Source: Escherichia phage FP43
Sequence record: MN648445
Length of the DNA stretch: 64,000 nt
Direction: 5' to 3' (one strand)
The notes beneath the pieces were generated by a model. It was not told the origin of the DNA, searched no databases, and worked only from the letters and a program-made list of their open reading frames with translations. A program made the translations under genes and the position numbers. This document shows positions 835 to 26,286 of this stretch, piece after piece; the first letter of the stretch is position 1; the number at the start of each line of letters is the position of its first letter.

Positions 835-3800
835 CTAATTTAACCTGTGGTGGATTCACGGGGTCTCTTGGATTTCCTACATTATCGATTAACCGTTGTT
901 CAACCAAATCTCTAAATCTAGAGAATGTTGTTCCGGACGCATCAAATAATGGGCTCATCAGTTTACGTCGTTCCGATGGAAGTTGACCTTGAAATATGGA
1001 GTTATTGTTTTCAGCGTTATAATCTTCAGGCAATGGATAATCTTGTCCAGCCATAGGGCCTATTTCATATATCGCTTTACCTGTAATAGGGTCAAACTCA
1101 ACATTTCCTTGTGGGTCTAATTTAGCCACTCGGTCTGCATATTTAGTCGGTAATCCAGAATCCCACTTATAGTTTTTGTATTTATTAATAATGGTTTCAA
1201 CATGTTTAAGTGTTAATCCGGTGTTAATAAACATTGTGAGAAGGGTAATTGCGATAAATCCAAATCCAACCGGATGAACAAAACGTAATACGTCTGATTT
1301 CCAACGAGATGATGGAAGTTTAGATTTAATCTTCATTACGTAGTATGCTCTACCACGATTTATGTAATCGATGTTGTTCTGAGAAAGCTCTTTACCTTTA
1401 ATACCACGAACAATTTCACCTTCAAAACCCGGGAGTCTTTCAGCTTTAACTTCCTGTCCTTGGATTAAACGACCTAAGAGGTTGTGAATTGTTACAGTCC
1501 ATTGTAATTTACCTTTAGAGTAACTTCTCTCGATATACGTCACATTACAACGTCCTGTAGCGGTGTATATGGTTTGTCCGACCAAATCTTCTGTCAACGA
1601 ATCAGATTCAATGATGATATCATATTCGGTCCCGGAACTAGATTCAATTTCAATTTCAACATCTTCGTTATAAAGCACTTTAAACAAGAATTTATATGAC
1701 GCTTCAGTTCCTTTAGTTGAATAGAAGTCATAACTTCTTGATTCAAAGAAACGAGACACTAAATCGCGTTTTTCGGCGTTTAAGTAAATGTTTCGTTTAT
1801 AAATCTCAGACCATAAATATTCCCACGCATGTTCTTCTCGCGGATATTGATTTTTAATAAGATTCAAAAGGTTGTTATAATGGGTCCCATAACCGTCAGA
1901 AAGATACTGAATATAAGCCTCGCAGAATGCTTCGAAGTTTGTATTATCTAAAAGATAAGACTCCGGCATCATTGTAGTGAGCAATGGTCGTAAATCTGGG
2001 TCCGCAATGCCGTTCTCTTCTACAGGAGCCCATGTGGTATCTTTTTCTTGGTTTTGTAACGATGCCGTTAAGAATATATTAGTAGGCTTCCAAATTATAG
2101 AAACATTATCTCTAACACGATAACTAAAATCATAATAAGAAATAATCTCACCTGATGATTTATAGAAAATCATGCCGGATGCATATTTTTTAAATCCGGT
2201 GAAATCCACGTTAGGCATCACTATTGTACAGTCACCGTCCTTCCAATATTCATGAACTTCACGGTCTGAAGAACTAAGTGGATGATTCTCAATAACCTTA
2301 GTGTAAAGTAAATCAGAATAAATTACAACGGCCTTGTCTGAGTTATTAATCCAACAACGAGTACCAGACTTTCTAGAATAACTAAAGAATGGCTCAGCAT
2401 AGTATTCCATCGGTTGAGGAGTGAACGATTCCCATTGAGAGTCTTCAGTTGAAATAAATGCCATCATATGATAATGTTTATCAGCCAACCATTCGCGAGG
2501 ATACTCATATTTAACAGCACCGATTAAACCGTACTTGATTTGTGTTTTTGGGTCATCAACAATATCCGATTCTAGAAATTTAAAATTACTAGATGAAATA
2601 GATAACTCAACACCATCAGTAGACATACTGGTGTACCCAGGTTCAATACGACGGCGTTCTTCTTCAGTATTACCAAACACACGTTTAAATGTGCCAGCAT
2701 CATGGTCTAGAACGTAAACGCCCTTATCAGCAGAATCAACAATAGGAGTGGTCCTCGGGTCGTCATTAAGATTAACAACTTCGCCGATAATCAGTGCAAA
2801 TATTTTACCGCCAACAGAATCCATTTTATAGCAAACTGCCTTAGGGTTACCTGTGATGTTAAATGTTTCTTGTTCAAACAAACGTTCGGAATATGTCGGA
2901 GATAACGGGTCTGAATCAATAGGGGCATTACTAGTTTTAATAAAACGAACTTTATCTCGAGCAGCAACGTATACATAATCGTCGTTGCAAACGATAGCTT
3001 CTGCAATACGTGATACGTTAGCAGGTAATGATGCGTAGTTACCAAATATTTCTACATCAAATCCTAAATTTAACTGGTCACCAATTTTAGCAAATGTTAT
3101 ATCTTGAGAACTAAATCTCACATCATCAGCAGACCAACGAACGTCAGTTGATTTACGGCCGTAAAATAATTTATCATACCCAAGAACATACGTGGTATAA
3201 CCTGTCTGGTAATACACTGTTCTTGATACAGGGTACCCTACACGGTCATTAAACAATTTAACCGATTTCCAGGTTTGTCCCTTATCATTAGAGACTTTAA
3301 CCACAGGCTGATACCGTTCAAACAAATAAAGAATTCCTTCAGATTCCATCAAATAAACACGGTTTATATCATGACACACCTGTTGAATCGAACCTTGAAT
3401 TTCATGATACTCATTTTCGCCAATAATGAAATTTTTAATAGATGAAATATCCGCATAAGCAGGGCTAAATTGGAACGATTCATTCATTAGAGCTGCCATT
3501 ATAGTGTCGTTATTAAAATCGACATAAGCCGTGTTGTTATTTGTAAATTTTTCTCTAATAAAAGTGTTAGCCAATTGCATTTCAATCATATGTTGAAATG
3601 TATACGCGTTAGTCTGAAATGATTCAAATATTTCGGTGTATACCCAATCGGATCTCTCGAAGCCTTCAGCGGCAGTTGATACACGAATAATATAAGAAGT
3701 TAATGGGTCTAAGCTACTTTCGAACCAGTTGCTATTAGGAGTATATCCTAAATTTATCCATCTGTAGCTGGCAGGAGGAATTATTTCCCCGTCTGCCGTT

Positions 3801-12603: not shown

Positions 12604-12891
12604 ATGAAAACCTATAAAGAATTTATATCACCTGTTGCTAACGTTTCTACTCTGACTGAAGCAACCCTTACTTCCGAAGTTATTAAAGCAAATAAAGGAC
12701 GTGAGGGTAAACCAATGATTAGTCTGGTTGATGGTGAAGAAGTAAAAGGTACTGTTTACTTAGGGGATGGATGGTCTGCTAAGAAAGATGGCGCTACTGT
12801 TGTTATCTCTCCGGCCGAAGAGACCGCACTGTTTAAAGCTAAGCATATTTCTGTAGCTCAGCTTAAAATTATTGCAAAAACTCTTCTGTAA
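12604..12891 (+). CDS. Internal-protein-like capsid-targeted protein
   Basis: N-terminus MKTYKEFI matches the capsid-targeting leader of T4 internal proteins; ipI position after 57B. Confidence 0.6.
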   Translation: MKTYKEFISPVANVSTLTEATLTSEVIKANKGREGKPMISLVDGEEVKGTVYLGDGWSAKKDGATVVISPAEETALFKAKHISVAQLKIIAKTLL

Positions 12892-12894
12892 GTA

Positions 12895-12933
12895 GTTTAC
12901 ATGCTGATAGGACTATGTTATAGTAGTCCTATC
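12895..12933 (+). promoter_or_regulatory. Early promoter cassette with perfect 10-bp inverted repeat around -10
   Basis: GTTTAC 12895..12900; TATAGT 12919..12924; arms GATAGGACTA (12906..12915) and TAGTCCTATC (12924..12933). Confidence 0.65.
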
Positions 12934-12959
12934 AGATCAACAACCAAACGGAAAAACAA

Positions 12960-13223
12960 ATGAAAACCTATAAAGAATTTATCGCTGAATCTCAATCTTC
13001 TACTCTGTCAGAGAACTACGAATCATTCTCTTACAACAACGACCATGCAATGTTCTACGACCGAAACATCGGTACTTACGTCCATGTATGGGGTGTTAAA
13101 GATGGTAATGTAGTTGTTAAGAAAAACTCTAAAGAAGGCAACGGACGAGGCCAGGTAAAAATTACCAGCAAGAAAGCTATCCAAGCTTACGTCGATTATG
13201 TTAAACGCGAAGCTGGTATTTAA
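12960..13223 (+). CDS. Internal-protein-like capsid-targeted protein (second copy)
   Basis: N-terminus MKTYKEFIAE; tandem with 12604..12891. Confidence 0.6.
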   Translation: MKTYKEFIAESQSSTLSENYESFSYNNDHAMFYDRNIGTYVHVWGVKDGNVVVKKNSKEGNGRGQVKITSKKAIQAYVDYVKREAGI

Positions 13224-15580: not shown

Positions 15581-15588
15581 TATAAATA
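15581..15588 (+). promoter_or_regulatory. Late promoter (TATAAATA)
   Basis: Exact octamer about 35 nt upstream of the 15624 ORF. Confidence 0.6.
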
Positions 15589-15623
15589 TAGTAAACAATA
15601 AACCTACTTTCTAAGGACCATCA

Positions 15624-16250
15624 ATGTATACTTTTAATGAATTTTTAGCCGAAACGGAAGTAATCACCGAAGCCGGTGTACGTATGACAAAAGAGAAATG
15701 GCAAGCTGCTTACGATGCTATTTCTGGTACAAAAACTAGTACAGAGTTTTTCAAAAACGTTCAAGCCATGTACGGTATCGACACTTCCAGCCAAAAAGAA
15801 TATTACAGAGCTTCTAAAGCATTCAAAGATATTGTTAGTGGTGGTGTTTCTGCTAAATCTGGTTCGCCTAAAGTAAAACCTGCTCCTACCACTCCTAAAC
15901 CTGCGACCCCTAAAGCAGTAGCAAAACCTGAGCCTAAGCCGGAAGTAAAAGCAACTCCTAAAGCTCCTGCTCTTAAGTTTGATACTTCTAGCCTGGAAAA
16001 AAAATATAAACAACTATCTTCGCTTGTTCGTGATATTGAATCTGATACATCTTCACTCGTTCGTGAATTCAATAGTCTTCGTAATGGCCAACATATCAAC
16101 AACCTTGATACCCCAGACCTTTATCGTCTTTATTTGACTATCGAAGGTTTGAAGTATACTCAACCACTTCATGATGAGATTAAAGAAAAACTTCGACAAG
16201 CAGGTCGTTTGGCTGCTGACGCTGCTCAGTATGCAAAAACTCGTAAGTAA
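15624..16250 (+). CDS. Internal-protein-like protein with Pro/Lys-rich linker
   Basis: N-terminus MYTFNEFLAE resembles the capsid-targeting leader; low-complexity PKVKPAPTTPKPATPKAVAKPEPKPEVKATPKAP; late promoter upstream. Confidence 0.55.
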   Translation: MYTFNEFLAETEVITEAGVRMTKEKWQAAYDAISGTKTSTEFFKNVQAMYGIDTSSQKEYYRASKAFKDIVSGGVSAKSGSPKVKPAPTTPKPATPKAVAKPEPKPEVKATPKAPALKFDTSSLEKKYKQLSSLVRDIESDTSSLVREFNSLRNGQHINNLDTPDLYRLYLTIEGLKYTQPLHDEIKEKLRQAGRLAADAAQYAKTRK

Positions 16251-23283: not shown

Positions 23284-23516
23284 GTATAGCAATTTACATT
23301 AAATCAGAATCATGTGATAGTTATCTGTACACATATGATAAAGATGTGTCAGAAGAAAAAATCAAAGACGACCTTAATACGGACCTTGATATGTTCTGTC
23401 CTATTGCAGATTACAAACTTGCGGTCTCTAATAGTGAAAGTCCATCTAAAGAAACGCGCATTGAAGAATTTATGTCTGAATTAATGGCCAAATCATGGGA
23501 CCGAGATGATGAGTAA
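23280..23516 (+). CDS. Small acidic hypothetical protein
   Basis: 78-aa ORF with ATGA overlap to upstream stop. Confidence 0.4.
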   Translation: MSIAIYIKSESCDSYLYTYDKDVSEEKIKDDLNTDLDMFCPIADYKLAVSNSESPSKETRIEEFMSELMAKSWDRDDE

Positions 23517-23964
23517 GAAAAATAAAGTGAAAGAGCTATCAGCCGGTATTATTTTCCTTACCGAAGATAAAGAATTATTCATGGGGCGTGTAACTGGTTC
23601 TCGTCCTAAAGGTGCATTAACTCATCGGTGGGATATTCCTAAAGGCCGTGTCGAACCTGGCGAATCTCCTATTGAAGCCGCTATTCGTGAATGCGAAGAA
23701 GAAACTGGGTTTACACAATATGACCCTGCCTTCCTGAAAGACCTAGGTGAACATCATTACTCAGACAATAAGAATATTCATCTGTTCCTATATACCATCC
23801 CTGTAGAGCACGAGCAATTCAGAAACAGTGTTTGTAATTCCTATCATACATTCCAAGACGGACGACATATTCCTGAATTTGATGCATTCGCTTTAATTAA
23901 ACCTTCTCAATGGGAATATGTAATGGGCAAATCGTTATATAAGGTGCTCACTACCCTCCTATAA
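23506..23964 (+). CDS. nudE: Nudix hydrolase NudE
   Basis: 152 aa with Nudix box GRVEPGESPIEAAIRECEEETG; directly upstream of e as in T4. Confidence 0.8.
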   Translation: MMSKKNKVKELSAGIIFLTEDKELFMGRVTGSRPKGALTHRWDIPKGRVEPGESPIEAAIRECEEETGFTQYDPAFLKDLGEHHYSDNKNIHLFLYTIPVEHEQFRNSVCNSYHTFQDGRHIPEFDAFALIKPSQWEYVMGKSLYKVLTTLL

Positions 23965-23970
23965 GTAATA

Positions 23971-23998
23971 AATACCTCCTATAAACGTGGGAGGTATT
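23971..23998 (+). promoter_or_regulatory. Stem-loop sequestering the Shine-Dalgarno of gene e
   Basis: 9-bp stem AATACCTCC / GGAGGTATT with 10-nt loop TATAAACGTG; ATG at 23999 follows immediately. Confidence 0.65.
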
Positions 23999-24487
23999 AT
24001 GAATATATTTGAAATGCTTCGTAATGACGAAGGTCTTAGACTGACTTTATACAAAGACACTGAAGGCTTTTGGACGATTGGCATAGGCCATTTAGTAACA
24101 AAGAACCCGTCTTTAGCCGTAGCTAAAGCTGAACTTGACAGAATGATCGGTCGTAAATGCAACGGTACAATTACCCTTGATGAGGCTGAAAAGCTATTTA
24201 ATGAAGACGTTGATAAAGCTGTCCGCGGAATCTTGGGTAATGCTAAACTTAAACCGGTATATGATTCTTTAGATGCAGTTCGTCGGTGTGCATTGGTCAA
24301 TATGGTCTTCCAAATGGGTGTAGCAGGAGTCGCCGGTTTTACTAATTCTCTTCGTATGCTTAAACAGAAACGTTGGGATGAAGCGGCAGTAAATCTAGCT
24401 CAATCTAAATGGTATCGTCAGACACCTAATCGCGCGAAACGCGTAATCTCAACATTTAAAACAGGAACTTGGAAAGCGTATATATGA
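23999..24487 (+). CDS. e: Endolysin (T4-type lysozyme)
   Basis: [32 protein letters not shown]...; near-identical in pattern to T4 lysozyme as recalled. Confidence 0.92.
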
Positions 24488-24765
24488 AAACATATAGTGA
24501 ATTTTTATCAGAATCTATTCTTAACGAAGCTACTGACACATTTGCAACTAAGCTAGGTGCAGCTTTGGTTGAAGCTGAAAGTCTATTAGCACGTATTTCT
24601 GAACTTGCTAGTAAGATAGATACTCGCAAATTTGAACGTACCAGCGATATCGCTAAGCTTGAAGCCTTGTTGCGTATGTGCGATAAACCAGAAGAAATCG
24701 CTAAGAACGGCTCGCTGATGAAACAACGTCTTGAAAAATATATTTCAGGCGCTTCAGAAAAATAG
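24484..24765 (+). CDS. Internal-protein-like capsid-targeted protein
   Basis: N-terminus [10 protein letters not shown]; ATGA overlap with e stop; ipII/ipIII neighbourhood of T4. Confidence 0.6.
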
Positions 24766-24766
24766 T

Positions 24767-24818
24767 GTTTACTTCCTCCAAGGGTTTTGATACTATACAT
24801 TCATCAACTACTTGGAGG
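24767..24818 (+). promoter_or_regulatory. Early promoter cassette whose 3' arm contains the denV Shine-Dalgarno
   Basis: GTTTAC 24767..24772, TACTAT 24791..24796; perfect 8-bp arms CCTCCAAG (24775..24782) and CTTGGAGG (24811..24818). Confidence 0.6.
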
Positions 24819-24823
24819 AAATT

Positions 24824-25237
24824 ATGACTCGTATCAATTTAACACTTGTTTCTGAACTGTCCGACCAACATCTTATGGCTGAGTATCGTGAATTACCACG
24901 CGTATTTGGTGCAGTCCGTAAACATGTTCAAAACGGTAAACGTGTAAAGGATTTTAAAATCTCTCCAACATTTATCTTAGGCACAGGTCACGTAACATTC
25001 TTTTACGACAAACTCGAATTTTTACGTTTACGTCAAATCGAGCTAATCGTTGAATGTTTGAAACGTGGTTTCAAAATCAAGGACACGACAGTCCAGGATA
25101 TTTCCGACATCCCTGCCGAATTTCGTAATAATTATGTCCCGTCCGAAGCGTCCATTGCGATAAGTCAAGCACGCTTAGATGAAAAAATTGCTCAACGTCC
25201 GACTTGGTACAAATACTATGGTAAATCAATTTACTAA
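24824..25237 (+). CDS. denV: Endonuclease V (pyrimidine-dimer DNA glycosylase)
   Basis: [35 protein letters not shown]...; 137 aa; recognised T4 denV pattern. Confidence 0.9.
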
Positions 25238-25244
25238 GGAAAAA

Positions 25245-25574
25245 ATGAAAACATATCAAGAGTTTATCACTGAAGTTACATTATCTGCGGAACAGAAAGC
25301 TGCTATCGAAGAAAGTAAAAATCCCAAAGTAACATATAAAGTAAATAGTAAAGGCGTTTTTGATGGCTTGGTTCAAGACCCTGAATTGAAAAAAGCTCTT
25401 TCTAAAACTAATGCGTACTTTGCTCCTAAATTTAACACAGCAGGTGTACTTATTGGATTGGATGTATTCAACTCTAAAGGTGTTCTATCTAATGCCTTTG
25501 GCTATGCCGCTAACAAAATTACCAAAGCCGCATGGGAATCCAATACCAAACAAGCTCAAAAGCCTAGAGTATAA
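25245..25574 (+). CDS. Internal-protein-like capsid-targeted protein
   Basis: N-terminus MKTYQEFITE, exact match to the recalled T4 leader MKTYQEFIAE with one substitution. Confidence 0.65.
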   Translation: MKTYQEFITEVTLSAEQKAAIEESKNPKVTYKVNSKGVFDGLVQDPELKKALSKTNAYFAPKFNTAGVLIGLDVFNSKGVLSNAFGYAANKITKAAWESNTKQAQKPRV

Positions 25575-25746
25575 TTCTTGTCTAATAAAGGGAAACGCAA
25601 CCTCTCCTTATGAACGTCGAGTCCTCTGAGTGATGTACCTTTTCCAACCTGTAATAAGGTCGAGCGCAATGCGGTAATGGGTTTACATAGCGAGTCGAAG
25701 GACCTAACATGTGCCACGGAATGGCCCAAACCTTAAGAGAAATAAT

Positions 25747-26286
25747 ATGAGAACATTTTTAACTGGACCTTATCTATCCCTGATGAATGCTTTTACACAC
25801 CATTCTGATGCTAGAGTAGAAGAAATTTGTAAGAACGGTTATATCCCACCATTTGAAGACGTACTCAAGCAGTACTGTACACTTCGTTTAGACGGCGGCA
25901 GACAATCAGGTAAATCAATTGCTGTGACTAACTTTGCTGCTAATTGGCTGTATGATGGTGGAACAGTTATTGTTCTTTCTAATACTTCAGCTTATGCTAA
26001 AATTTCTGCTGGCAACATTGAAAAAGAATTTTCTCGTTATTCTAGCGACAATATTCGATTCCGTTTATTTACTGATTCTGTCCGTAGTTTTATTGGCAAT
26101 GAAGGTTCTAAATTCCGTGGATTAACGCTTTCTCGTATTCTGTATATAATTGACGAGCCTATTAAAGCTCCTGATATGGATAAGATTTACAATGTCCATA
26201 TTAAAACAGTACAGTACTGCTGCAAAAGCAAATATTGCATCGGCGGTAATGCTCGTCCTCAATTTTTTGTGATTGGAATGCAATGA
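25747..26286 (+). CDS. Hypothetical protein
   Basis: 179-aa ORF; weak P-loop-like GGRQSGKS. Confidence 0.45.
   Translation: MRTFLTGPYLSLMNAFTHHSDARVEEICKNGYIPPFEDVLKQYCTLRLDGGRQSGKSIAVTNFAANWLYDGGTVIVLSNTSAYAKISAGNIEKEFSRYSSDNIRFRLFTDSVRSFIGNEGSKFRGLTLSRILYIIDEPIKAPDMDKIYNVHIKTVQYCCKSKYCIGGNARPQFFVIGMQ

Follow-up and report, generated by a model that had tools for sequence, protein, structure and literature searches.

Two genes with capsid-targeting leaders flank denV in an RB69-like phage and very probably encode internal proteins of a variable second ip locus

The stretch of DNA analyzed here, referred to below as the window, is 64,000 nucleotides of Escherichia phage FP43 (MN648445). The whole window belongs to a Mosigvirus (RB69-like) genome and is 99.7% identical to phage ATK47 over the e-denV-vs.8 locus. 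Two ORFs starting at 24484 and 25245, described in the initial annotation as bracketing denV, are both present on the + strand at these positions (Table 1), as are all of their neighboring genes. The order of genes in the window is nudE, e, ip(24484), denV, ip(25245), vs.8, and by the synteny nudE-e-...-denV-vs.8 both genes lie within the T4-type variable ip locus, e-denV-vs.8. In T4 (NC_000866) the order in the direction of transcription is nudE, e, ipIII, ipII, denV, vs.8, both ip genes being located upstream of denV and none downstream, whereas the window carries one on each side. The arrangement thus differs from that of T4, as originally proposed. The ATG of gene 24484 overlaps the TGA stop codon of e (ATGA), and 24484 is translationally coupled to e. 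The start codon of gene 25245 is located 7 nt past the denV stop codon; a longer ORF could start from an upstream ATG at 25179, but the start at 25245 is preferred because it is supported by the annotated start in RB69 and by an AAGGA Shine-Dalgarno sequence.

Table 1. Positions of genes, leaders and regulatory elements in the window
Feature	Position	Strand	Description
ipI orthologue	12604..12891	+	Other ip locus, downstream of 57B; Pfam IPI_T4 E 3e-50; 87% identity to T4 IPI
Second leader gene of the ipI locus	12960..13223	+	87 aa; leader MKTYKEFIAE, predicted cut before S; matches phrog_13302
Late promoter and 208-aa ORF	15581..16250	+	Perfect TATAAATA at 15581-88; ORF 15624-16250; divergent leader MYTFNEFLAE, predicted cut before T
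Lysozyme gene e	23999..24487	+	Upstream anchor; similar to T4 e, syntenic locus order
Internal-protein gene 24484 (very probable)	24484..24765	+	93 aa, Ip5-like; corresponds to RB69ORF127c
Capsid-targeting leader of 24484	24484..24513	+	7/10 residues match T4 CTS
PeSL-like element	24767..24820	+	T4-type early promoter nested in a hairpin; dG -19.8, z -3.3
denV (UV-repair gene, endonuclease V)	24824..25237	+	Conserved gene between two cassette slots; 90.5% aa identity to T4 DenV
Internal-protein gene 25245 (very probable)	25245..25574	+	109 aa; corresponds to RB69ORF123c
Capsid-targeting leader of 25245	25245..25274	+	MKTYQEFITE; 9/10 residues match T4 CTS
Non-coding spacer before vs.8	25575..25746	+	
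vs.8	25747..26286	+	Downstream anchor; similar to T4 vs.8 and to RB69 and ATK47 annotations

Both 24484 and 25245 are real genes under purifying selection, the pN/pS values against orthologues being 0.02-0.16 for 24484 and 0.17-0.21 for 25245. Proteins with at least 95% identity are encoded in 232 phage records for 24484 and in 76 for 25245. Protein 24484 matched phrog_3499, "internal head protein", with an E value of 2e-46, and protein 25245 matched phrog_3966 (E 3e-32), a family annotated only as "hypothetical protein" in the records examined. The orthologues in RB69, RB69ORF127c (named "internal head protein" in RefSeq) and RB69ORF123c, are located at the same positions with 91% and 97% amino acid identity, respectively, and orthologues are found also in ATK47 and APCEc01. 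In Dhakavirus WG01-type phages, the slot of 25245 is occupied by a protein of about 35% identity that also carries the CTS.

Capsid-targeting leaders were searched in all six frames of the window against MKTYQEFIAE, a match being counted when six or more of the 10 residues agreed. A total of five matches were identified, at 25245 and 12960 (9/10 each), 24484 and 12604 (7/10 each) and 15624 (6/10), and each of them begins with the ATG of an ORF on the + strand, the lengths of these ORFs being 87-208 aa. In the control of 20 shuffled windows, 0-1 matches at the same threshold were obtained per window, two in total. The count of at least five leader-bearing genes in the window, as originally claimed, therefore holds as four canonical genes plus a divergent one (15624). 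The N-terminus of protein 25245 is MKTYQEFITEVTLS, in which cleavage by the gp21 protease is predicted after ITE (residues 8-10), between MKTYQEFITE and V; in 24484 the cut is predicted after LSE (residues 8-10), with a second candidate after LNE (13-15). ATK47 encodes the gp21 protease, gp22, gp67, gp68 and gp23, the genes for gp21, gp22, gp67 and gp68 being located outside the window.

Among the 76 leaders found at e-denV-vs.8 in the Tevenvirinae genomes compared, 72 carry the motif [LIMV]xE. There are 62 distinct 36-nt sequences among them, Thr3 is encoded by all four codons, and because the variation sits mostly at third codon positions, the leader is kept as a peptide and not as DNA. In RB69, the leader of ORF127c includes a -1/+1 frameshift pair and that of ORF123c reads IAA where the window has ITE, so that either the canonical leader is not kept in every strain or the RB69 reference has sequencing errors. 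As to the remaining leader-bearing genes of the window, the product of 12960 resembles T2 Ip7 in the leader only. Orthologues of 15624 carry the leaders MKTYNEFLNE, MLNFKEFITE or MLKFKEFISE together with an identical late-promoter box, and the Dhakavirus MN04 orthologue begins with the canonical MKTYNEFLNE; the 15624 product is probably a fifth internal protein.

Protein 24484, for which helical content is predicted, is a homologue of the Ip5 proteins of T2, PP01, AR1 and RB9. Identity to T2 Ip5 is 48% over 84 aa (E 6e-23), and the homology to the Ip5 family extends over the full length of 24484; protein 25245 is without such similarity. The two Ip5-type genes differ in location, the ip5 gene being in the other ip locus (57B-ip5-ip7-trna.4) and 24484 in the e-denV-vs.8 locus, and also in leader, which is the long IpI type in Ip5 (MKTFKEFATKTTITE followed by S) and the 10-residue type in 24484. 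The T4 Ips are basic, whereas the mature form of 24484 has a near-neutral pI of 6.3-8.1. The AlphaFold2 model of 24484, made from a shallow alignment, is all-helical but of low confidence (pLDDT 72.6, pTM 0.36). The mature form of 25245 is Lys-rich and basic, with pI 9.7 and 15 K+R versus 8 D+E. When the body of 25245 was searched exhaustively by HMMER against 1.84 billion representatives, only two clusters were obtained, its own and the WG01-type; other matches were repetitive long proteins and were regarded as compositional. The AlphaFold2 model of 25245, also from a shallow alignment, is poor (pLDDT 54.7), and in BFVD no more than two significant matches were identified by Foldseek, 98% and 33% identical, which are probably orthologues.

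The 24484 model matched no PDB structure by Foldseek. Sequence searches of both proteins against Pfam and PDB gave nothing beyond one chance match (E 0.15), neither protein reached the gathering score of the IPI_T4 profile (PF11634), and a word-indexed protein search gave near-identical orthologues only. Altogether, the structure and fold searches pointed to no target for 24484 or 25245. In BLASTP against T4 IpII and IpIII, the alignments end at residues 11-25 and cover the leader only, and the T4 and window proteins fall in separate body clusters. T4 IpII/IpIII and 24484/25245 are thus alike in the N-terminal leader ending in IxE or LxE, the e-to-vs.8 location, small size and non-core nature, but their bodies are unrelated past residues 1-17. 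The same packaging logic is seen with T4 IPI* (PF11634), the GmrSD inhibitor, of which the orthologue is located at 12604 in the window. In the literature on RB69-like phages, the searches gave no virion proteomics or N-terminal sequencing data that include 24484, 25245 or their orthologues.

Upstream of gene e, late-promoter-like boxes are present, including TATAAGTAATAAATA at 23960-23974, each with one mismatch, and a hairpin of the T4 RBS type at 23971-23998 (dG -16.3, z -4.25) covers the ribosome-binding site of e. By exact search, no perfect TATAAATA was found directly upstream of 24484 or 25245, the nearest late-promoter-like site for 25245 being TACAAATA at 25208, and a scan of the locus for sigma-70 promoters and terminators gave no excess of sites over shuffles. 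Within the PeSL-like element upstream of denV, the early promoter is composed of a -35 sequence GTTTAC (24767-72), a 17-nt spacer and a -10 sequence TACTAT (24791-96), fitting the PeSL consensus TTTACW-N17-TAYWAT (Comeau 2014), and in the hairpin 24773-82 pairs with 24811-20, sequestering the denV Shine-Dalgarno sequence GGAGG. Most Tevenvirinae loci have the same promoter/hairpin architecture upstream of denV, with different and co-varying stems. As in the PeSL and IP-associated elements described previously (Repoila 1994; Arbiol 2010; Comeau 2014), an early promoter is embedded in a stem-loop at a cassette boundary; in contrast, the traceable joints at the window locus sit not at the stem-loop but in the leader (versus RB69) or inside e and denV (locus L022 of a T4-like genome).

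The e-denV-vs.8 locus was compared among 33 Tevenvirinae genomes. A total of 76 leader-bearing genes were identified; their bodies belong to 13 or more unrelated families, and 29 different arrangements were seen. Leader genes are located on both sides of denV in about 20 of the 33 genomes; ip-denV-ip is the commoner layout, and T4, with two genes upstream and none downstream, is one variant. The exchange of internal-protein cargo at this locus, suggested in the initial annotation, is supported by this number of arrangements, by the lack of similarity of 24484 and 25245 to T4 IpII and IpIII past the first 10-17 residues, and by four further observations. The IpIII family is located upstream of denV in six genomes and downstream in seven. 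T2 Ip5, the relative of 24484, sits between 57B and trna.4 in the other ip locus. Locus L022 has T4-like flanks and a patch of about 480 bp matching 24400-24880 of the window with about 95-100% nucleotide identity (about 98%), versus 65-87% outside. Finally, RB69 carries three cassettes downstream of denV versus one in the window, which is without the two extra leader genes (ORF125c and ORF124c) located in RB69 between denV and ORF123c, and the joint between the two lies inside the 30-nt leader of 25245, where the upstream context of RB69 denV/ORF125c passes into the ORF123c body. The leader of 25245 was considered as a visible chimera of the ORF125c and ORF123c leaders, but these are too alike (28/30 nt in L006), and the crossover can be placed only within the leader.

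The comparison shows that the genes behave as cassettes: cargo bodies are acquired, lost and relocated among slots, from one ip locus to the other and across genera. The leader, the short upstream promoter/stem-loop elements and the conserved e, denV and vs.8 genes would supply homology for recombination. By analogy, integron cassette arrays and anti-CRISPR hotspots also consist of small adaptive genes that are unrelated to each other, flanked by conserved anchors, with a short sequence in common at each cassette boundary. Integrons, however, depend on an integrase and attC, whereas the ip locus is without either, exchange presumably taking place by the general homologous recombination of the phage, and the shared boundary sequence of the ip locus, unlike that of integron arrays, doubles as a protein-sorting signal. 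Such exchange at the ip loci is already published: two highly variable IP loci with more than 30 IP variants are mentioned in Arbiol 2010 (PMC2839356), which cites Repoila 1994 for them, and "two Ip loci" are described as an anti-defence hotspot in Silas 2025 (PMC12373910). The observation, though confirmed, is thus not out of the ordinary: descriptions of variable ip loci, of the common leader and of promoter/stem-loop elements go back to 1994, and current understanding is unchanged, though the comparative table of cassette arrangements could aid annotation.

Taken together, 24484 and 25245 are very probably ip genes of the second ip locus (e-denV-vs.8) of an RB69-like T-even phage, of which the products would be packaged, injected and likely used as anti-defence cargo. 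The lack of an exact late-promoter sequence in front of both genes, the near-neutral pI of mature 24484 and the altered leaders of the RB69 orthologues speak against this reading. Following T4 biology, the leader would dock each protein late in infection on the scaffolding core built in the prohead from gp22, gp67 and gp68, and the gp21 protease would then cut after Glu. The mature proteins thus freed inside the head, predicted as about 83 aa (or 78 aa) for 24484 and about 99 aa for 25245, would be ejected with DNA into the next host; judging from the sequences, the two are probably injected together with DNA. Internal proteins arrive in the host cytoplasm before any other phage protein, and the three of T4, Ip1, Ip2 and Ip3, were recently shown each to block a distinct GmrSD enzyme; it was proposed that inhibitors of this kind have their hotspot in both Ip loci (PMC12373910). 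IPIII is required for infecting ECOR17 (PMC9391042), and Ips have been described as diverse defence proteins with only the CTS in common (PMC3012670). Because every one of the three T4 Ips inhibits a single GmrSD variant, 24484 and 25245 are most likely first-response anti-defence proteins. IpII and IpIII of T4 have reported GmrSD targets, and an anti-GmrSD role of 24484 and 25245 is proposed by analogy. The DNA of Mosigvirus carries arabinosyl groups, and GmrSD cuts RB69 (PMC6024577; PMC13326640); nucleases attacking the arabinosylated cytosine DNA are a plausible target class.

Other readings of these genes were considered. An antisense ORF of 114 aa (24456-24800) overlaps 24484 and remains open in close relatives, and the ATK47 GenBank record annotates neither 24484 nor 25245, but it is extremely improbable that the two are chance or decaying frames or that the true gene is the antisense ORF: the pN/pS of the + frame is 0.02-0.21, both proteins match PHROG families, their ORFs are intact in 76-232 genomes, and the antisense ORF, which runs against the direction of all neighboring genes, shrinks to 91 aa in L017/L018. 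The antisense ORF was rejected as the true gene on the + frame pN/pS and its absent family match. It is also very unlikely that the 5' sequence common to these genes owes its conservation to a role at the nucleic acid level alone, as a translation initiation or recombination site in front of early cytoplasmic proteins that stay unpackaged. The coincidence of the leader DNA with the deletion joint and the lack of an exact late-promoter match immediately in front of 24484 or 25245 would fit such a site; conservation is, however, at the amino acid level with synonymous third positions free, the (L/I)xE motif is retained in 72 of the 76 leaders, and the CTS suffices for packaging and processing, the 10 residues of T4 packaging foreign proteins according to the account of Mullaney & Black (1996) given in PMC9026906.

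For packaged proteins, the classical T4 view offers a role mainly as generic DNA counterions or packing proteins in the head rather than as specific defence inhibitors, and the basic, Lys-rich mature 25245 as well as the contacts of internal-protein lysines with DNA phosphates in T4 (PMC3012670) agree with it. We regard this role as improbable, since it does not account for the at least 13 unrelated bodies, for the 29 arrangements found among 33 genomes or for lateral transfer having taken place repeatedly. Moreover, mature 24484 is not basic, and a specific GmrSD target is now known for each of the three T4 Ips (PMC12373910). That 24484 and 25245 are injected anti-defence or host-takeover factors with a target other than GmrSD, such as another nuclease, an abortive infection system or a competing phage, is a real possibility, though not the one favored here. 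Their bodies are unrelated to Ip1-3, the searches suggested no target, and Mosigvirus DNA is modified with arabinosyl and not glucosyl groups, so that a different set of host enzymes may be of relevance; on the other hand, all of the Ips with known targets (three of three) inhibit GmrSD variants, GmrSD inhibition is proposed by Silas et al. for both Ip loci (PMC12373910), and GmrSD cleaves RB69 (PMC6024577).

As injected internal proteins, 24484 and 25245 represent conserved cargo in a genus of therapeutic relevance of which the DNA is differently modified, and they may reasonably be considered as candidate anti-defence proteins of a new kind and as candidate determinants of host range. In a more speculative and rather unlikely version, the 30-nt leader would serve both as a sorting signal and as a portable recombination site of an integrase-free cassette array, with 24484 and 25245 inhibiting restriction enzymes specific for arabinosyl-cytosine; if true, the Ip-GmrSD arms race would be extended to a new DNA modification.

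The RNA elements of the window and the 172-nt spacer in front of vs.8 were also examined. Rfam search over the whole window gave only two tRNAs and chance lncRNA matches, and a permissive rerun over 25400-25900 gave likewise chance matches. Because the spacer has no Rfam match and folds worse than shuffles (z +2.1), no RNA element is claimed there. By eye, short stretches of the spacer resemble the N-terminal extension in the longer annotation of T4 vs.8.

Two leader-bearing open reading frames (ORFs), named here by start coordinate, bracket denV in the window, as described in the initial annotation, and the resulting gene order (e, 24484, denV, 25245, vs.8) differs, as also claimed there, from that of T4 (e, ipIII, ipII, denV, vs.8 in NC_000866). 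The window's plus strand is equivalent to the strand that is transcribed in the T4 early region. The 3-kb stretch around both ORFs is 99.7% identical to that of Enterobacteria phage ATK47 and 98% identical to that of RB69, both members of the genus Mosigvirus, subfamily Tevenvirinae. Copies at least 95% identical were found in 232 phage records for 24484 and in 76 for 25245. The pN/pS ratios against orthologues were 0.02-0.16 for 24484 and 0.17-0.21 for 25245, and both genes are under purifying selection. A 114-aa antisense ORF overlapping 24484 was rejected as a shadow ORF, being without family match and with substitutions that fit the plus frame. The GenBank record of ATK47 (KT184309), the phage most closely related to the window, annotates neither ip gene, and both ORFs are intact there at 2585-2866 and 3346-3675.

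Features of the e-denV-vs.8 locus and other leader-bearing genes in the window
Feature	Position	Strand	Remarks
12604	within 12604-13223	+	IPI orthologue in the other ip locus, downstream of 57B; 87% identical to T4; Pfam IPI_T4
12960	within 12604-13223	+	second leader-bearing gene, 87 aa; phrog_13302
ORF 15624	15624, within 15581-16250	+	208 aa; divergent leader MYTFNEFLAE followed by T; Pro/Lys-rich middle
nudE	23506-23964
Hairpin	within 23955-24005		12 bp, over e Shine-Dalgarno; dG -16.3, z -4.25
e (lysozyme)	23999-24487
ORF 24484	24484-24765	+	93 aa; ATG overlaps TGA of e
Early promoter nested in hairpin	24767-24820		T4-type promoter; GTTTAC, 17 nt, TACTAT
denV	24824-25237
ORF 25245	25245-25574	+	109 aa; N-terminus MKTYQEFITEVTLS; 7 nt past denV stop
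Spacer	25575-25746		172 nt, 25245 to vs.8
vs.8	25747-26286

In a six-frame scan of the window, five sites matched the T4 leader MKTYQEFIAE at 6 or more of its 10 residues (12604, 12960, 15624, 24484 and 25245). All coincide with the ATG of plus-strand ORFs; 20 shuffled copies of the window yielded two such sites altogether. The fifth, at 15624, is divergent; the leaders of its orthologues are MKTYNEFLNE (Dhakavirus, JS98-like), MLNFKEFITE (Karamvirus) and MLKFKEFISE (Winklervirus). A perfect T4 late promoter, TATAAATA, is located 36 nt upstream of ORF 15624, and a T4 late-promoter box was found about 35 nt upstream in all four family members examined. Based on the JS98-like leader and the late-promoter boxes, the prediction of at least five leader-bearing genes holds. 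Among the matches listed, this family is annotated as "hypothetical" throughout and includes no T4 record; ORF 15624 probably encodes an internal protein that has escaped recognition, at a site other than the two classical ip loci.

Among the 76 leader-bearing genes gathered at the e-denV-vs.8 locus, residues M1, K2, T3, Y4, E6, F7, I/L8 and E10 are near-invariant, and [LIMV]xE occupies positions 8-10 in 72. At the DNA level, third codon positions of the leader are free to vary (Thr3 is ACT, ACA, ACC or ACG), giving 62 distinct 36-nt sequences, which argues that selection acts on the peptide and that the leader is a peptide signal. According to the accounts cited, the first 10 residues of IPIII are enough to send foreign proteins into the T4 prohead core, and processing follows there (Mullaney & Black 1996 via PMC9026906; PMC3012670). 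By analogy with these T4 experiments, the leader would function likewise in the proteins of the window. The leader-recognising machinery (gp21 protease, gp22, gp67 and gp68) is annotated in the near-identical ATK47 genome; its genes lie outside the window.

With DenV as query, 80 loci were obtained from IMG/VR, about 33 of them from Tevenvirinae with denV flanked by e and vs.8. After addition of RB69, T4 and the window, a total of 33 genomes carried leader genes, in 32 of which denV has recognisable e and vs.8 neighbours; a further locus (L016) was without any leader gene. The 76 genes of these genomes fall into at least 13 body families without detectable mutual similarity, each slot (between e and denV, or denV and vs.8) holding zero to three genes; 29 distinct arrangements were found in the 33 genomes, although the dereplication of IMG/VR makes the per-genome diversity look greater than it is; the counts of families and slots are unaffected. 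Leader genes are located on both sides of denV in about 20 of the 33 genomes, and thus the two-sided layout of the window is the commoner pattern, whereas that of T4 (two genes upstream of denV, none downstream) is one variant.

The proposed exchange of internal-protein cargo at this locus is backed by the comparison of these 33 Tevenvirinae genomes and by traceable events, the leader-bearing genes behaving as cassettes with their own cargo bodies. Members of the IpIII family precede denV in six genomes and follow it in seven, and the Ip5-like family occurs in both ip loci. In one compared locus, L022, the flanks are T4-like (amino acid identity to T4 of 94% for e and 89% for vs.8), and in a patch corresponding to window 24400-24880 the nucleotide identity to the window reaches about 95-100% per 40-nt bin, against 65-87% elsewhere; this places the crossovers inside e, at its 3' end, and inside denV, at its 5' end. 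Recombination of RB69-type phages with other T-evens is reported to be partially excluded (PMC6024577), but the Mosigvirus-type cassette in this Tequatrovirus-like genome indicates that such exchange happens in nature. The cassette in L022 (IMGVR_UViG_2974787500_000001, 2570-3060) is Ip5-like and is accompanied by its downstream promoter/stem-loop.

In RB69 and many other Mosigvirus, ORF125c, ORF124c and ORF123c, all with the leader, are located between denV and vs.8. The window retains the denV-ORF125c intergenic sequence (TAAGGAAAAA-ATG) and carries the ORF123c body after the leader. In L006, the closest four-cassette relative, the two leaders are alike at 28 of 30 nt; one homologous crossover inside the leader would yield the arrangement of the window. 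Each of the exchange events may have been either a loss or a gain. By junction probe, the window-type junction was detected in 14 records (11 phages), and other records contain about 81, 323, 518 or 665 extra bases, which correspond to intermediate cassette numbers.

Neither protein resembles T4 IpII, IpIII or IpI beyond the first 10-17 residues. ORF 24484 matches PHROG 3499 "internal head protein" and is 48% identical over its length (E 6e-23) to T2 Ip5, encoded in the other ip locus (57B, ip5, ip7, trna.4). The sole PHROG match of 25245 is PHROG 3966 (unknown function), and the records among the matches listed are annotated throughout as "hypothetical protein". An exhaustive search of 1.84 billion representatives with 25245 yielded its own cluster and one 119-aa cluster only, the latter probably corresponding to Dhakavirus WG01 ORF115 (119 aa, 35% identical to 25245), which lies directly downstream of denV and has the leader MKTYQQFITE. 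For neither protein did Pfam, PDB sequence search, AlphaFold2 or Foldseek provide a clue to function, the AlphaFold2 models being weak (24484, all-helical, pLDDT 72.6; 25245, pLDDT 54.7). Predicted mature 24484 is 83 aa with pI 6.3 (cut after LSE) or 78 aa with pI 8.1 (cut after LNE), and mature 25245 is 99 aa with pI 9.7, compared with about 9.6 for T4 IpII and IpIII.

Late-promoter-like boxes (TATAAGTA/AATAAATA) are located just 5' of the e hairpin, an arrangement resembling that described for T4 e, in which translation is confined to the late phase, and 24484 would be co-translated from late transcripts of e. The early promoter is nested in a hairpin (dG -19.8, z -3.3) whose 3' arm is the denV Shine-Dalgarno; this architecture precedes denV in most Tevenvirinae loci, T4 included, with stems that differ and co-vary. 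Transcripts from the nested promoter would be without the 5' arm, and on read-through transcripts the hairpin would block access to the denV ribosome-binding site, suggesting that denV is translated off its own early transcript and masked on read-through ones. The element fits the description of PeSL-like IP-associated elements as available from Repoila (1994), Arbiol (2010) and Comeau (2014). RB69 conserves the spacer upstream of vs.8, for which Rfam gave no match and which folds less well than shuffled sequence. Visual inspection of the spacer points to AVMG and MCHGMAQT, both out of frame, as remnants of the extension that the T4 vs.8 annotation has at its N-terminus; either the T4 vs.8 start is over-extended or the 5' part of the Mosigvirus gene was lost.

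Following T4, both proteins would be synthesised late and docked to the scaffold core by the leader, gp21 would cut after Glu10, and the mature proteins would stay in the DNA-filled head until ejected with the DNA; by analogy, they may then play an anti-defence role. In T4, each of Ip1, Ip2 and Ip3 is an inhibitor of one GmrSD variant, and GmrSD-family variants were proposed by Silas et al. as the targets of all genes in both Ip loci (PMC12373910); infection of ECOR17 needs IPIII (PMC9391042). Arabinosylated cytosine derivatives occur in RB69-type DNA, which GmrSD cleaves (PMC6024577; PMC13326640), making type IV enzymes that act on this modification plausible targets of 24484 and 25245. The practical value is a pointer to uncharacterised candidate anti-defence proteins.

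The finding is confirmed and rightly interpreted, and every element of it had been described before: the capsid-targeting sequence (PMC3012670), the IP differences between close relatives with a host-range hypothesis (PMC4122927), and the view of Ip loci as an anti-restriction hotspot (PMC12373910). Both genes entered GenBank with the RB69 genome deposit, as ORF127c and ORF123c. The additions here are descriptive: the arrangement table, the point that the layout of T4 is not the prevailing one, two exchange events that can be traced, and the recognition of the 25245 family and ORF 15624 as leader-bearing despite "hypothetical" annotation.

The other ip locus contains the IPI orthologue and 12960 in the window, whereas T4 has ipI alone and T2 has ip5 and ip7; the likeness of 12960 to T2 Ip7 is confined to the leader. 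In RB69 (AY303349, 2585-2640, corresponding to window 24484-24540), a 1-nt deletion and a 1-nt insertion, 22 nt apart, lie inside the ORF127c leader, which therefore reads MKTYMNFYQNLSLNEA. The change is either a sequencing error, further errors being reported in this record (PMC13326640), or a true loss of the targeting signal. RB69 ORF123c has IAA in place of the ITE of its relatives.
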